IMG/VR virus record: IMGVR_UViG_3300032046_000015
Span: 1 to 64,000 of that record
Reading direction: 5' to 3' (one strand)
From: a virus
DNA: 64,000 nt
A model generated the notes under the pieces. The model searched no databases, was not told where the DNA came from, and saw nothing but the letters and a program-made list of their open reading frames with translations. Both the position numbers and the translations under genes were made by a program. Of this stretch, positions 10,660-63,673 are shown piece by piece (within the stretch, counting starts at the first letter, position 1; each line of letters starts with the position of its first letter).

Positions 10660-11889
10660 TTAGTTGGTGCTCTCCAACGTCAGTACAAAATCCTTTACTA
10701 TCTTGTGTTCAGTTGGTGGCGCCAAGTAATAGGGAACATTTCTGATTTCTATCTCAAATGATCCGCTGTAAATGTCATCCAAGTTTGGCCTATATCCTGC
10801 CACATAAGGTGACACGATAACCAAATCAAGCATTTCATCCGTATCAAGCCAACGCAATTGCGGTATGGCTTTAACACCAGCATAGATTGCGTTGGCCAAA
10901 CGTTGTTGATCTACCAACAAATTAGTGAGAACAACGATGTTTGCCCTGAATGTTAAATTATCTGGGCCTGACATCTTATAACCTGAGCTGGCCCCAGGTG
11001 CGACAAACGTGTCCCCTTCAAATGACTGAGAACGTTCTACAACCAAAATGTCTTCCAAGGTGACAGCAGGAAGTGAAGCCAATTCTGTGTAATCCTGCTG
11101 TGTGGCTATTGCTCCAATGGGATTATATTCCACTATCACTTTCAACTGCTTGCCTGCTGGCACGCTGGTGGCAAGTGTTATGACTTTAGTGCCTGGATTG
11201 TAAGAGGATAAGATGTCTGTAAACTCCTCTGGATCATCCGATACATTGAACACTCCTCTTACATCTGTGATATTCAACTTGGCCATATCATAGTTGTTCA
11301 AGTCTATTGTAGTGGTTATGGCTGCTGTTTCCATGATGAAATCTGCTGGAGCAGTTATGCTTTGTAATGCTGGCATCAATGTTTTTATCAGCCAACTCTC
11401 TTGTGTATCTAAATACATATAAAGCAATATCTTAATTCCAGAAATGGATGGAGTGATTTGTGTATCGTTTGTTCTGAGATTGATGATGAATCCCAAAGCA
11501 TGTTCTGCCCCAACAGCACTCTTGAATGTATCAATGTGATCATTAATTTCAAAAACAGTGTTCCAATCATTTGCGCCAGCAACAACCCATTGTGTTCCGT
11601 TATGGAAATACTCTTGTACACCATCATACAACTTGTAGTATATGTATGTCCCAGTGGGCTCATCTGACAGTGGTTGAATTGCCAACCATTGCTTGTGAGC
11701 CTTGGGATTAGTCATAGGCACTTTTGCCCATATATTTGTGGCAACCGGAAACAATCCCAAATGATCTGCCTTCAACTTGATCGCTCCATCCTGCGGATCA
11801 AGCCTGATCTTTGTGTCGTCATTAAACACAATCTGTTCTCTCATAGTTTCAGGCCATGACAGAATCTTTATGTATCTTTGCCAGTCCAT
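10660..11889 (-). CDS. putative tail terminator / neck structural protein
   Basis: 409-aa ORF immediately upstream of the sheath; C-terminal LPAVTLED region resembles tail terminators. Confidence 0.5.
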   Translation of the reverse strand: MDWQRYIKILSWPETMREQIVFNDDTKIRLDPQDGAIKLKADHLGLFPVATNIWAKVPMTNPKAHKQWLAIQPLSDEPTGTYIYYKLYDGVQEYFHNGTQWVVAGANDWNTVFEINDHIDTFKSAVGAEHALGFIINLRTNDTQITPSISGIKILLYMYLDTQESWLIKTLMPALQSITAPADFIMETAAITTTIDLNNYDMAKLNITDVRGVFNVSDDPEEFTDILSSYNPGTKVITLATSVPAGKQLKVIVEYNPIGAIATQQDYTELASLPAVTLEDILVVERSQSFEGDTFVAPGASSGYKMSGPDNLTFRANIVVLTNLLVDQQRLANAIYAGVKAIPQLRWLDTDEMLDLVIVSPYVAGYRPNLDDIYSGSFEIEIRNVPYYLAPPTEHKIVKDFVLTLESTN

Positions 11890-12470
11890 TATGGAGCAAC
11901 CTTGTACTTGGGTGATAAATCGTTGAATGCCGCATCAACAGCCATTCGCCAGTTATCCTCACAATCAGTCTGTATCTTTGGATCTTCAAATGGTTGTTTA
12001 ATAAATGGTCTGCCTCTGACTCTCAAAGCAGAAGTGCTTGGATTGATTGGGCTGAAAACATATTCTTTTGCTTTGTATTTGAACCACGTTCTCATCTTGG
12101 GTGTTATCTTAATCGTGAATCCTTCATGTAGCATCTCTCCTATATTGGCCATGGCCTTGCCACGCAACTTTGTAGCAGCCAACACTCCAACAAATCCGCT
12201 TGACCAATCTATCTGCCTGGTGCGGATGGAACGTCTCAAATCACCCCTGTCCACGAGTGGCAAGCTGCTTCCCTTCATAGCAATAGTTATTGGCCTGTTG
12301 GGCTCATACTTGCCTTGATCTATTCTGGTGATGATTTCTGTCCTGACAAGTAGTGTGTTAGCTGTTGTAGCCTTCTTGACTTCACTCTTCAGCTTGTTAG
12401 CAAAACGTGCTGATGACATGAGCTTCATGTACAACTTCCACTGTCCAACCTTTGTTATGCTGCCAGCCAT
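11889..12470 (-). CDS. tail completion / virion morphogenesis protein (HK97 gp10-like)
   Basis: KGSSLPLVDRGDLRRSI, HEG and RPFIKQ motifs. Confidence 0.75.
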   Translation of the reverse strand: MAGSITKVGQWKLYMKLMSSARFANKLKSEVKKATTANTLLVRTEIITRIDQGKYEPNRPITIAMKGSSLPLVDRGDLRRSIRTRQIDWSSGFVGVLAATKLRGKAMANIGEMLHEGFTIKITPKMRTWFKYKAKEYVFSPINPSTSALRVRGRPFIKQPFEDPKIQTDCEDNWRMAVDAAFNDLSPKYKVAP

Positions 12471-36340: not shown

Positions 36341-36414
36341 TCAGGGTGAGTGGATTTGAACCACCGACCACTTGCGCCCAAGGCAAGTGCGCTACCAGGC
36401 TGCGCCACACCCTG
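36341..36414 (-). tRNA. tRNA-Pro(TGG), CCA not encoded
   Basis: Cloverleaf: acceptor CAGGGTG/CACCCTG, D-loop AGCCTGGTA, anticodon stem CTTGC/GCAAG with loop CT-TGG-GC, T-loop GGTTCAAATCC. Confidence 0.95.
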
Positions 36415-60135: not shown

Positions 60136-61965
60136 TTACACGTGGATGACACCGTCTGTGTTCAGTTTCTGTATAGCCTTGACCACGCCATCGGTATTGG
60201 CCTCAACCACGCCCATGAGTCTGGCCTTGAACGCTCCATCAAACGCTGTGTCCTTGATGTCTGTCTTGAATGGTACAGCCTTTTGAGCGATATTTGTGTC
60301 TGGACATGGCAACCCCACATCGATGTTTCCGGTGCGTGGTTTGATATAAAGGATAGCCAGACCTTGCTCCCTGCCTGTAGTCTTATGGCAGTACATGGTC
60401 AGGTATCCAGAACCACCACCGCCCAATGGCGTCTTGTCGATGATGTAAAAATCGCCATCATTCTGTGCCGCTGCTTTGTCCATTAACGTCTTGCTGAACG
60501 CTGCCGCTATCTTGTGGGCCAGAGTCATGGCCAAGAGTCTGGACGGATTGTTAGGATCAAGCATGCCCGATATGACCTTGGGTTTTGGTTCTGCCTTGGC
60601 CTTGGGAGCAGCCTTCTTTGTCTCCTCTCCTGCTGGTTCTGTCGCTGGCTCAGAAGCATCCGCAGGGGCTGGTTTTTCTTTGGCCTTGGTATCCGATTGA
60701 GGCTTGGCTGTTGCTTTGGCAGCTTTGGGTTTTTCCTTGGCAGCTTTGGGCTTGCTTTTGTCCGGTTTGGCCTTGGCATCTGCTGTTTCCGCAGGAGTTT
60801 CAGTTGATGTGTCCGCTTTGGGTGCTTCCGCTGGCGCTGGCGTTGGTGTGTCCGCTTTGGGTGCTTCCTGTTTAGCCTTCTTGCCTTTGGACTTGCCACC
60901 CTTCTTCATCAACTCAGTTCCCTTCTGAAGCAGTGCGATGATTCCATCCTCTCCTGCTGTTGCGGCTGTTTTGACGATGTTAGTCCATTCGCCACCCTCA
61001 GCTTCTGCCACCGCTCTGGCGGCATCAGCTATAGGTTTGCACTCATCACGTTTGGCACATGGTTCCTTTTCCTTTTCCTGTTTGGCTGATGGGTTGCCAT
61101 CGCACTCTGCGAGTCCAACCTCATAAAAGCCAACGCATCCACCACTTCCCTGTTCATCCTTCTGTTCGTCTGACATGTCGTCACCTCCAGTTAAAATTTG
61201 GCCAACCAAAGATTGGCTTGTCAATACACAAGATTTTTCGCCTGTGTCCTTATTATTTGATGTTGTAGCTAAAAGTATCATTTTGGCCTTGATCCTTTTT
61301 AAGCTGCTTTTAATTTGTCCAGTTGTTGCTCCTATCTTTTGAGATAGATAACTGATCACCTGAAAACTGCGAGTCAACACTTCTGCCAAATCCCGCAAGT
61401 CTTGTGGTGGATTCAGAACCATCTGTAGCACCTTCCTGTCTATAGGTTTGTCCAAAGATTCAAACAAACGTTGCCTATTCATTTTGGACACACGATTATG
61501 TTCCAAATCCATCAATATGGTTTCTGGTGTATTTCTGTGTACAAGCCAACAATCCTCTCTCTTATGGGCATGGTGGCCTAATGCCAATGGCTCCTCTGCC
61601 AACCATTGTTCTGGACTTGGATACACAGAATGTGGGCTCAATTGTACTTTGTTGGTTTCGCTGTCTATATAATGTGGATTGCGCTTTTGTGCGAAGTGAT
61701 ATGATATAATCATGGGCGCCACATTATTCAGAGATTGGTAGAAATATGTGCTAAATTTGACACCTTTGTTGGGATCAAATTTCACCATAGCAGCCATAAG
61801 AGTCATCCTGAACATCTGTTCAATATCTGCCACATCCTCTCCTATCTTGAATGATAGTTGTATGGCCTTCTTGTGTATGAGTGGTGCTACACCATTCAAC
61901 ACCGTCTCAAACTTTTTTCTCACTTCATCCGGACAAGTGAAATTGTCTGGTACCAATTTGATCAT
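60136..61965 (-). CDS. sigma-70-like factor fused in frame to a Cys/PAK-rich protein (internal start at 61176)
   Basis: KFDPNKGVKFSTY region-2 motif and a region-4-like HTH; GGAGGTGA RBS before the internal MSDEQK. Confidence 0.7.
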   Translation of the reverse strand: MIKLVPDNFTCPDEVRKKFETVLNGVAPLIHKKAIQLSFKIGEDVADIEQMFRMTLMAAMVKFDPNKGVKFSTYFYQSLNNVAPMIISYHFAQKRNPHYIDSETNKVQLSPHSVYPSPEQWLAEEPLALGHHAHKREDCWLVHRNTPETILMDLEHNRVSKMNRQRLFESLDKPIDRKVLQMVLNPPQDLRDLAEVLTRSFQVISYLSQKIGATTGQIKSSLKRIKAKMILLATTSNNKDTGEKSCVLTSQSLVGQILTGGDDMSDEQKDEQGSGGCVGFYEVGLAECDGNPSAKQEKEKEPCAKRDECKPIADAARAVAEAEGGEWTNIVKTAATAGEDGIIALLQKGTELMKKGGKSKGKKAKQEAPKADTPTPAPAEAPKADTSTETPAETADAKAKPDKSKPKAAKEKPKAAKATAKPQSDTKAKEKPAPADASEPATEPAGEETKKAAPKAKAEPKPKVISGMLDPNNPSRLLAMTLAHKIAAAFSKTLMDKAAAQNDGDFYIIDKTPLGGGGSGYLTMYCHKTTGREQGLAILYIKPRTGNIDVGLPCPDTNIAQKAVPFKTDIKDTAFDGAFKARLMGVVEANTDGVVKAIQKLNTDGVIHV

Positions 61966-62069
61966 AATTTGCCATCCTTTCATAAGTGTGCTTGGCCCCA
62001 CCACTCCAAGCACGTGTCCCGTTGGACATGACCTTGTGTCCAACTACCATTGGCTGGAAGACTTTGATC

Positions 62070-62147
62070 TGACTCTATCTCTGTCAGGCTGGAAGCAAGT
62101 CAACTTTCCAGCGACATCCGCTGTGTGTAGCGGATGTTTCGATTGTC
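62070..62147 (-). ncRNA. type II hammerhead ribozyme (core variant CUGACAGA)
   Basis: AUC-GAAAC-stem III-GUC-stem I (GCUGGAA/UUCCAGC)-CUGACAGA-GAU; loop UGAC can pair with downstream GUCA. Confidence 0.75.
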
Positions 62148-62180: not shown

Positions 62181-62765
62181 TCACTTCATCCGTTCAAGAT
62201 CATCCCTGCTCCAACTCCTCTGGTTGGTTATATACCTGGCATAATGCCTGTGTAAACGTTTCATGTCATCCAGATTATCACCGCAAATTTCATTCCAAAT
62301 ATCGTGCCAACCCCAATCAAATTTGCGGCCATCGGATAACGTTGGTTTGAATGTGTAGGCATCATGGCAAATGACATGTAACTTGTTTAAGTGTGTAAGG
62401 TGTGGCATTACCAAGTCTATGACTTCAGGTTGAATCTCTATTACCAAAACATATTCAACTTCATCCTTGCTGGCAACCGCACTGGCAATCACACCCAAAC
62501 CCAATCCTGATATGAAGACACGACCTTCTGCCTTGTGGTAGAAATGTTGGTGCATCCTCATCTCCATAGGAGTGTCGGTCATCACTATGCCGCCTTGATG
62601 TGTCAATCTTGTGTACTCTCCTGGATCAACCATAGTCTGTGGCCTTCTGTTGATGAGAGCACGCAAATTGGCAAACTCTGCTTGTTCTTTTGTGATTGTG
62701 AACTTATCTATAGCCCAATCACCCTTCTTGCCTTCTGGCACAATCGCTTTGCTTAACATGGTCAT
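62181..62765 (-). CDS. SAM-dependent methyltransferase (spermidine synthase-like fold)
   Basis: SGLGLG, IEIQPEVI, DA and HDIW motifs. Confidence 0.75.
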   Translation of the reverse strand: MTMLSKAIVPEGKKGDWAIDKFTITKEQAEFANLRALINRRPQTMVDPGEYTRLTHQGGIVMTDTPMEMRMHQHFYHKAEGRVFISGLGLGVIASAVASKDEVEYVLVIEIQPEVIDLVMPHLTHLNKLHVICHDAYTFKPTLSDGRKFDWGWHDIWNEICGDNLDDMKRLHRHYARYITNQRSWSRDDLERMK

Positions 62766-62774
62766 TCTCTCCTC

Positions 62775-63188
62775 TTAACTGAACTTGTATTCAGGTGGTT
62801 CATTAATGTTTTGGATTTCATGTTCCTGCTGGTCAACATCGCCAGTGGTGAAGATAGAGACAACATGGCAATATGAAGCATCTGCCAACACTTCCGCAAC
62901 TTCACTTGCGTAGTCAATCAGATCAGACACAAAGCTCAATACTATTTCACCGCCATCAGAAGTGCGGACAACATGCCAGTTATCCCTATCAAACATATAT
63001 GAATATTCATGTCCTCTTATCCGCACTGGTTGTTTACCTTCTTCATACAGGAGTGTGTAAAACTCCACAAATTGATCCTTCATATCGTTGATACTGGTTC
63101 TGTCATCTATGTCGGTGCCATATAATTTACACAACAGTATCAGATGTTTTGGATTGATGATATCCTTCTTGCCTGGAATGCTTTTCAT
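62775..63188 (-). CDS. hypothetical protein
   Basis: GAGGA RBS. Confidence 0.6.
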   Translation of the reverse strand: MKSIPGKKDIINPKHLILLCKLYGTDIDDRTSINDMKDQFVEFYTLLYEEGKQPVRIRGHEYSYMFDRDNWHVVRTSDGGEIVLSFVSDLIDYASEVAEVLADASYCHVVSIFTTGDVDQQEHEIQNINEPPEYKFS

Positions 63189-63203: not shown

Positions 63204-63581
63204 TTACTTTCTGGCTGCGTTGACTATGTTGTTGATTGCTTCATTGATCTTGCTTACAGCAGATGATAAATCTTTGTATGTGGCGAATAGTGTGGCACGC
63301 TCTGGTGTAATGTCATGAACCTGATTCTTGGGTATGCGAACATAGTCACTTTTATCCACTAATTTCCACACGTCCGTGATCTTTGTTCCCTGTGTTGTTT
63401 CTATGTGTCCAATCAGACTGTATTTGTCCTCAAGTGTTTTTGGTCCAATTGCGAACACATACTCTGGTGTCTCTTTAACATACACCATCTCTATGATTGC
63501 CGGTTGCCAATCGCCATACCTTCTGTATGACACCCAATAAAATTTGTCTCCTCTGTTCATTTCCTTGTACCATCCTTTCAT
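63204..63581 (-). CDS. hypothetical protein
   Basis: ORF directly downstream of the ribozyme. Confidence 0.6.
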   Translation of the reverse strand: MKGWYKEMNRGDKFYWVSYRRYGDWQPAIIEMVYVKETPEYVFAIGPKTLEDKYSLIGHIETTQGTKITDVWKLVDKSDYVRIPKNQVHDITPERATLFATYKDLSSAVSKINEAINNIVNAARK

Positions 63582-63595
63582 GTGTTAAATTCTGG

Positions 63596-63667
63596 TGACT
63601 TGCCATCATCAGGCCAACGGTGGTCAACCATTGACGACATCCGCTGTGTGTAGCGGATGTTTCGGCA
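63596..63667 (-). ncRNA. type II hammerhead ribozyme
   Basis: UGCC-GAAAC-AUCCGCU/AGCGGAU-GUC-GUCAAUGGU/ACCGUUGGC-CUGAUGA-U-GGCA; loop UGAC with a downstream GUCA pseudoknot. Confidence 0.9.
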
Positions 63668-63673
63668 TGCTTG

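Follow-up and report, generated by a model that had tools for sequence, protein, structure and literature searches.

A predicted type II hammerhead with a displaced core insertion ahead of a sigma-like gene, one of six copies in a phage transcription unit

The window analysed here is a stretch of 64 kb of DNA, namely the first part of an IMG/VR virus record of 83,016 bp, which is complete and bears direct terminal repeats (an exact repeat of 127 bp). The record comes from a sediment metagenome and represents an uncultured phage whose coding is almost wholly on the minus strand, where ORFs of at least 100 aa cover 78.5 kb of the genome. All the hammerhead features described below are also read 5′ to 3′ on the minus strand. 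Apart from these, the window contains a tRNA gene (36341-36414, minus strand, 64.5 bits), which is the sole Rfam match above threshold; at the gathering threshold, no hammerhead was reported in the whole window.

Six hammerheads, here called HH1 to HH6, lie between the genes of one region of this genome. In the direction of the minus strand, the helicase and primase genes are followed by an AT-rich non-coding stretch, a leader of ~320 nt, HH5, a 92-aa gene, HH4, a MoxR/CobS-like AAA+ gene, HH3, a CobT-like VWA gene, HH6, three small genes, HH1, two more small genes together with a methyltransferase-like gene, HH2 and, finally, a 609-aa ORF. The region between the primase gene and HH5 occupies genome 68676-69525 (L002:5176-6025, minus strand). 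Its AT-rich stretch (~500 bp) carries the repeats ACTATCAAA and TTGTTATAA(A/T)TTG and could represent either a cluster of promoters or an origin. The ~320-nt non-coding RNA that comes after it is richer in GC, contains GTGAAGCCTGAG repeated twice and has no Rfam match, and a cut at HH5 would be predicted to detach it from the first message.

HH2 is located between the methyltransferase-like gene, which closes the upstream block with a stop codon 37 nt before the hammerhead, and the 609-aa ORF (Table 1). The preliminary description of this DNA had placed HH2 in a sigma-factor leader. The downstream ORF is indeed sigma-70-like, as it matches TIGR02937 over 3-161 of 165 positions (E 3.9e-8; 33.1 bits, cut-off 42.9), Pfam Sigma70_r2 (21.6 bits, cut-off 24) and phrog_351 (E 2e-8), and its nearest ESM Atlas clusters are sigma r2/r4. 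Since all the sigma-70 matches fall below the curated cut-offs, however, this designation is reasonable but not secure, and no homologue of the ORF was found among 5.8 billion proteins.

The spacing at this junction is atypical. In the other five copies, a conserved leader/RBS motif (e.g., AACACAUGAAAGGA) begins within ~20 nt of the hammerhead tail, and the start codon comes after it. HH2 is the sole copy that is not directly followed by such a motif, as an insert of ~80 nt lies between them and the ribozyme is ~100 nt upstream of the RBS, where the motif reads ACUUAUGAAAGGAUGG (61987-61972, minus strand). Two hairpins (62043-62022 and 62013-61988) lie in the spacer, as does a repeat of CUUCCAGCC (62060-62052), whose other copy (62095-62087) is the 3′ strand of stem I. 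The region of the distal CUUCCAGCC repeat pairs with that of the RBS in the minimum free energy (MFE) fold.

Table 1. Features of the HH2 locus and copies of the hammerhead array (R1, covariance model built from HH1).
Feature	Position	Strand	Details
609-aa ORF	60136-61965	-	sigma-70/ECF-like N-terminal ~230 aa and long orphan C-terminal part
Spacer and leader	61966-62064	-	~100 nt, before the sigma-like gene
HH2	62148-62065 (62.1 kb)	-	predicted type II hammerhead, stem II 5′ strand to pseudoknot tail; variant core strand CUGACAGA, extra base between A6 and G8; R1 47.7 bits, E 2e-11, partly owed to the 30-nt block
HH2 stem II 5′ strand	62143-62141	-	AUC
HH2 GAAA	62140-62137	-	G12-A14 = 62140-62138
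HH2 stem III	62137-62129 + 62122-62114	-	ACAUCCGCU/AGCGGAUGU, 9 bp, loop ACACAC
HH2 GUC triplet	U16.1 = 62114, C17 = 62113	-	
HH2 predicted scissile bond	62113/62112	-	3′ of C17, 5′ of G1.1; from hammerhead numbering
HH2 stem I hairpin	62112-62106 + 62094-62088	-	GCUGGAA/UUCCAGC, 7 bp; 11-nt loop carries UUGACUU
HH2 core strand	62087-62080	-	CUGACAGA: C3 U4 G5 A6 C7 A(extra) G8 A9
HH2 stem II 3′ strand	62079-62077	-	GAU, 3 bp with AUC
HH2 pseudoknot	62103-62097 / 62075-62069	-	loop I UUGACUU / tail GAGUCAG
30-nt block common to HH2 and HH1	62112-62141 and 63635-63664	-	exact match
194-aa methyltransferase-like gene	62181-62765	-	phrog_15480, E 6e-32; homologues 42-49% identity
137-aa ORF	62775-63188	-	no family match
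125-aa ORF	63204-63581	-	first gene after HH1
HH1	63591-63671	-	core CUGAUGA + U after A9, canonical; R1 115.6 bits (model's own source)
HH6	64.8 kb	-	core CCGAUGA (U4C); 8-bp pseudoknot; R1 31.0 bits
HH3	66.9 kb	-	core CUGACGA + U, canonical; R1 52.2 bits
HH4	68.2 kb	-	core CUGACGA + U; own stem II 1 bp only; R1 55.3 bits
HH5	68.6 kb	-	core CUGAUGA; GUA site, long stem III; R1 33.7 bits

The complete layout of a type II hammerhead can be read in HH2 and, together with the R1 match, confirms the earlier observation of a second hammerhead with a non-canonical core at 62.1 kb. Stems III, I and II (9, 7 and 3 bp, respectively) stand in the type II order, G12, A13 and A14, the A15.1-U16.1 pair and a base other than G at position 17 are all found, and loop I can form a pseudoknot with the 3′ tail. 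This pseudoknot begins 1 nt past stem II and comprises 7 bp, two of them G-U (-6.9 kcal/mol), which makes it the second strongest among the six copies. The MFE fold obtained with RNAfold retains stems III and I (z = -4.7), and the parse places the predicted cut at the bond that had been proposed originally. The core is the one element that departs from the type II pattern: all the named bases of CUGANGA are there, but the linker between A6 and G8 is 2 nt long, the extra base being C62083 or A62082. In spite of this, the CUGA U-turn is unbroken and G8-A9 still adjoins stem II.

Although it is correct that this core has one nucleotide more than CUGANGA, as had been pointed out, the 8-nt strand is not peculiar to HH2. 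HH1, HH3 and HH4 also have a strand of this length (CUGAYGAU), in which the extra U follows A9, and the oddity of HH2 is the placement of the additional base between A6 and G8. One base after the core was explicitly permitted by the search descriptors used in 2011 (PMC3088659), and the extra U of the three siblings sits in a harmless position. When the 3′ half of HH2 is compared with those of HH3 and HH4, they align without gaps and differ at three adjacent bases only: CUGAC-GAU-GAUAG in HH3 and HH4 against CUGAC-AGA-GAUAG in HH2, where it reads as CUGACAGA followed by the stem II strand. As only these three bases have changed, the 8-nt length of the core and the GA immediately before stem II are preserved, and the net result is that the extra base no longer follows A9 but lies in the A6-G8 linker.

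The relationship between HH2 and HH1 is most evident in the identical 30-nt block, which was also noticed in the preliminary description. It contains the last base of stem II, GAAA, the stem III hairpin, GUC and the first base of stem I, and it occurs exactly twice in the window, each time on the minus strand; two occurrences were not obtained in any dinucleotide shuffle. Stems I and II of HH1 (GUCAAUGG/CCGUUGGC and UGCC/GGCA) differ in sequence from those of HH2 and pair in both copies, with the pseudoknot being kept as well, which bears out the original reading. Judged from these sequence features, HH2 is a genuine hammerhead-derived element rather than a product of chance. The identical block points to recent gene conversion, and the halves of the ribozymes appear to have been shuffled between the copies of the array. 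As recent conversion is implied, the intact helices of HH2 may reflect its young age rather than selection on HH2 itself.

It had been suggested that the rest of the genome be searched for more copies, and this brought the number to six, all intergenic and on the same strand, from 62.1 to 68.7 kb (i.e., within 6.6 kb), where they flank genes or short gene blocks on the coding strand. The array was found twice: with a descriptor scan and with the R1 model, which was built from HH1 (the 63.6-kb copy) alone. R1 recovered four copies besides HH2 at E ≤ 2e-6, while the next match in the genome reached 18 bits and lacked the core. By contrast, the Rfam model of type II hammerheads (RF02276, gathering score 37 bits) gave sub-threshold scores for HH3 (35.7 bits), HH1 (28.7 bits, E 0.004) and HH4 (23.4 bits), none was reported for HH5 and HH6, and HH2 was not matched at E ≤ 10, even when 131 nt were searched. 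Over 61.5-64 kb, HH1 alone was matched by Rfam at E ≤ 10.

Pairing is conserved throughout the array. Over the six copies, 96.7% of the helix cells are paired, versus 69% in shuffles and ~35% when the partners were slid, and double changes occur at 15 of 21 pairs, with none of 500 shuffles reaching as high, although the structure was used in fitting the alignment and the six sequences are all paralogues in one genome. This alignment was guided by the model and replaced those made with MAFFT, which were inconsistent in stem I. The covariation, which was put forward earlier in support of function, shows that the family is constrained, but it does not show cleavage by HH2. Taking the layout, the shared block and the array together, HH2 is, on sequence grounds, a true paralogue of HH1 in a six-copy type II array that punctuates one long minus-strand transcription unit.

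Canonical cores and good helices are found in HH1, HH3 and HH5, and each of the other copies deviates in its own manner: HH2 by the insertion in the N7 linker, HH6 by the U4C change and HH4 by a mismatched stem II. HH6 (genome 64745-64835, L002:1245-1335, minus strand) has perfect stems and an 8-bp pseudoknot, CGUUGAUU/AAUCAACG. Its U4C core was also observed, with a 7-bp stem I, an 8-bp stem III and a 5-bp stem II, in a contig of an unrelated phage (L106:795-860) as well as in L087 and L092, both from metagenomes. U4C therefore looks like a recurrent natural variant. HH4 (genome 68197-68279, L002:4697-4779, minus strand) looks chimeric, since its 5′ half resembles that of HH1 and the 37 nt of its 3′ half (core, tail and leader) are identical to those of HH3. 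Its stem II opposes GCC to GAU and is left with 1 bp, with an alternative pairing being available through GGUU past a 5-nt bulge. Additionally, the tail can pair with the core strand in all six copies (-4.8 to -10.2 kcal/mol), which would give a competing or post-cleavage hairpin: CUGAC/GUCAG, CUG..UGAU/GUCA..CAG or, in HH6, CCG/CGG (e.g., at 62069-62087 and 63591-63612 of the window). The change to CCG/CGG in HH6 fits this hairpin, but the longer pseudoknot of this copy also explains it.

If HH2 acts as its layout suggests, stems I and III would fold co-transcriptionally, loop I would dock onto the 3′ tail through the 7-bp pseudoknot and the core would cut 3′ of C62113. As a consequence, the upstream three-gene mRNA would terminate with the stem III hairpin (9 bp) and a 2′,3′-cyclic phosphate, while the sigma-like mRNA would begin with a 5′-OH at the stem I hairpin, and the two resulting messages could differ in stability and translation. 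The linker from the U-turn (CUGA) to the G8-A9/stem II domain has 2 nt instead of 1, so a slower cut than in the canonical siblings is expected, and a slow HH2 would lead to partial processing at the methyltransferase/sigma-like junction.

We regard the chances as evenly balanced that HH2 still cleaves, in which case it probably does so slowly. We count in favour of activity the intact helices, the strong pseudoknot, the GA kept in register by stem II and the conserved length of the core strand, together with the intergenic, coding-strand location of all six copies and the covariation across the array. Against it, we count the precedent of low activity for an insertion in this position, the failure of RF02276 to match, the likely gene conversion, the atypical spacing and the signs of decay in HH4. 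The precedent, the only published one in this position, is a natural insertion after A6 (“A6a”), for which the 2011 report gives a low activity, explained by a disturbed contact of the A6-N7 phosphate with U4 (PMC3088659); the same work indicates that rare natural core variants retain measurable activity.

The points counted against cleavage could also mean that HH2 is a disabled relic whose catalysis was lost with the shift in the core strand, and which would be, at most, a structured spacer of two stable hairpins between the methyltransferase-like and sigma-like genes, with the transcripts being read through uncut or processed by host RNases. We consider this plausible, though less likely than slow cleavage. 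The deviation affects precisely the place where the A6a insertion gave low activity, RF02276 does not match HH2, and the 80-nt insert parts it from the leader motif that directly follows all the other copies; as HH4, with its single cis base pair in stem II, also looks damaged, decay does occur in the array. However, decay should also have brought mismatches into the helices, and stem I (7 bp), stem II (3 bp) and the 7-bp pseudoknot are intact in HH2, with the GA in register.

Cleavage might instead be conditional or tuned, that is, dependent on ions (Mn2+ or high Mg2+) or on an alternative pairing of the leader, so that release of the sigma-like mRNA would be delayed or regulated. For instance, the A6C variant of phage Bcep176 prefers Mn2+ over Mg2+ (PMC7151607), and saltern variants with core insertions required unusual ion conditions (PMC3088659). 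Within the locus itself, the CUUCCAGCC repeat 35 nt downstream could compete for the 5′ strand of stem I, and the tail GUCAG can pair with the core CUGAC (-7.3 kcal/mol). Nevertheless, forcing the distal repeat to pair costs 5 kcal/mol relative to the MFE fold, which is compatible with the hammerhead, so that a switch through this repeat is unsupported; no ligand-binding or sensor element is evident, and the core/tail hairpin, being present in all six copies, is not special to HH2. A conditional HH2 seems unlikely to us, and slow cleavage by an otherwise ordinary hammerhead remains our preferred reading.

The preliminary description also envisaged that HH1 and HH2 would together excise a three-gene RNA of roughly 1.5 kb that could circularise. 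The interval is as proposed, with 1,523 nt between the predicted cuts (that of HH1 lying between 63636 and 63635) and ORFs of 125, 137 and 194 aa, but circularisation by the ribozyme or by an RtcB-type ligase found no specific support, and we regard it as highly improbable. The ends would bear the 5′-OH and the 2′,3′-cyclic phosphate, and the junction would combine the canonical core of HH1 with the stem III of HH2, which is identical to that of HH1. Even so, stem II at this junction would have only 2 bp, one of them G-U, the whole scheme presupposes cleavage by HH2, itself uncertain, and neither circular nor spliced products of clustered hammerheads were detected when they were sought in the 2011 study (PMC3088659). 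The ends of the HH4-HH3 and HH3-HH6 fragments would rebuild a stem II of 4-5 bp (4 bp for HH4-HH3), versus the 1 bp of HH4 alone, which we take as a curiosity and not as evidence for circles. In a broader version of these ideas, the array would consist of recombining half-ribozyme modules whose deviant copies are functional by design, with HH2 as a slow or ion-dependent cutter timing the release of the sigma-like mRNA and some of the excised messages (HH4-HH3 and HH3-HH6) being ligated into circular mRNAs; to our mind, this has little probability.

Searches by protein, DNA and pattern revealed no related phage and no orthologue of HH2. The sigma-like protein has no relative in IMG/VR or among GenBank phages, nor does the AAA+ protein in IMG/VR, the DNA of 61.9-64 kb gave no match to GenBank phages, and the 30-nt block had no exact occurrence in IMG/VR. 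Homologues of the methyltransferase are encoded at 43 IMG/VR loci; as the only hammerhead among them (L021) is canonical and unrelated, there is no orthologous site there. The pattern CGAAACA..TGTC..CTGACAGA, which is narrow and does not represent the variant in general, had 41 matches in IMG/VR, and none of them folds as a hammerhead at the match. The sequencing runs listed as holding this DNA include none of RNA; one is probably that of the source sample, and another contained only short near-identical fragments, none of which covers HH1 or HH2. Among metagenome sequences, an unrelated type II hammerhead that shares the stem III sequence (L096:1758-1839, minus strand; L103:498-579, plus strand) has the core CAUGAUGA, in which an additional A separates C3 from U4, along with intact stems and a GCCAC/GUGGU pseudoknot; it is a further natural case of a one-base insertion in the core. 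A 30.7-kb metagenome contig holds a pair of canonical type II hammerheads ~560 nt apart (L088:11302-11378 and 11863-11935, minus strand), whose 5′ flank (UAACAAGCCGAAACAUCCGC) agrees with the flank of HH4 along 20 nt, but the neighbouring proteins are unrelated to those of this phage.

Natural type II hammerheads and their pseudoknot between loop I and the tail were described by Perreault et al. in 2011, who also reported that clusters of hammerheads in prophages flank genes or short blocks and cleave in vitro and in E. coli (PMC3088659). The role of bacterial and phage hammerheads was considered unresolved in a 2019 review, in which the processing of polycistronic transcripts was suggested (PMC6765202). 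Clustered phage hammerheads and an insertion after A6 have thus been known since 2011 (PMC3088659), to which HH2 adds another case, and a one-base insertion in a hammerhead core is, by itself, not surprising. The interest of the six-copy operon lies rather in offering a compact natural panel of the core and helix deviations that are tolerated in vivo, in which weaker ribozymes can be compared for the level of processing between gene junctions, with HH2 standing ahead of a sigma-like regulator.

When compared with type II hammerheads (RF02276; PMC3088659), HH2 is alike in the order of its elements, the GAAA, the A15.1-U16.1 pair, the GUC, the short open stem II, the pseudoknot right after it and the intergenic location in phage DNA, and it is unlike them in having CUGACAGA for CUGANGA, in not being matched by the Rfam type II model and in that its cleavage is only predicted here. 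Like the natural A6a variant (PMC3088659, Fig. 5), it is a hammerhead that is complete apart from an additional nucleotide in the A6-G8 linker; A6a was assayed and had low activity, whereas the linker bases of HH2 are C and A and its siblings HH1, HH3 and HH4 carry an extra U after A9. The array as a whole resembles the prophage clusters of Agrobacterium tumefaciens, Azorhizobium caulinodans and Clostridium scindens (PMC3088659, Fig. 3 and S1-S3), in which same-strand copies also bracket genes and for which the processing of long phage transcripts has been proposed, as it is for this array. Here, however, the genome is that of a free phage, the six copies lie within 6.6 kb, three depart from the canonical form and the halves are apparently shuffled. 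Finally, the saltern HHmeta and HHphage ribozymes, with 2-nt core insertions, and the A6C ribozyme of Bcep176 are, like HH2, natural, phage-associated and non-consensus in their cores, and they work poorly in standard Mg2+, depending on salt or Mn2+ (PMC3088659; PMC7151607), although they are altered beside C3 or at A6, while HH2 is altered in the N7 linker.
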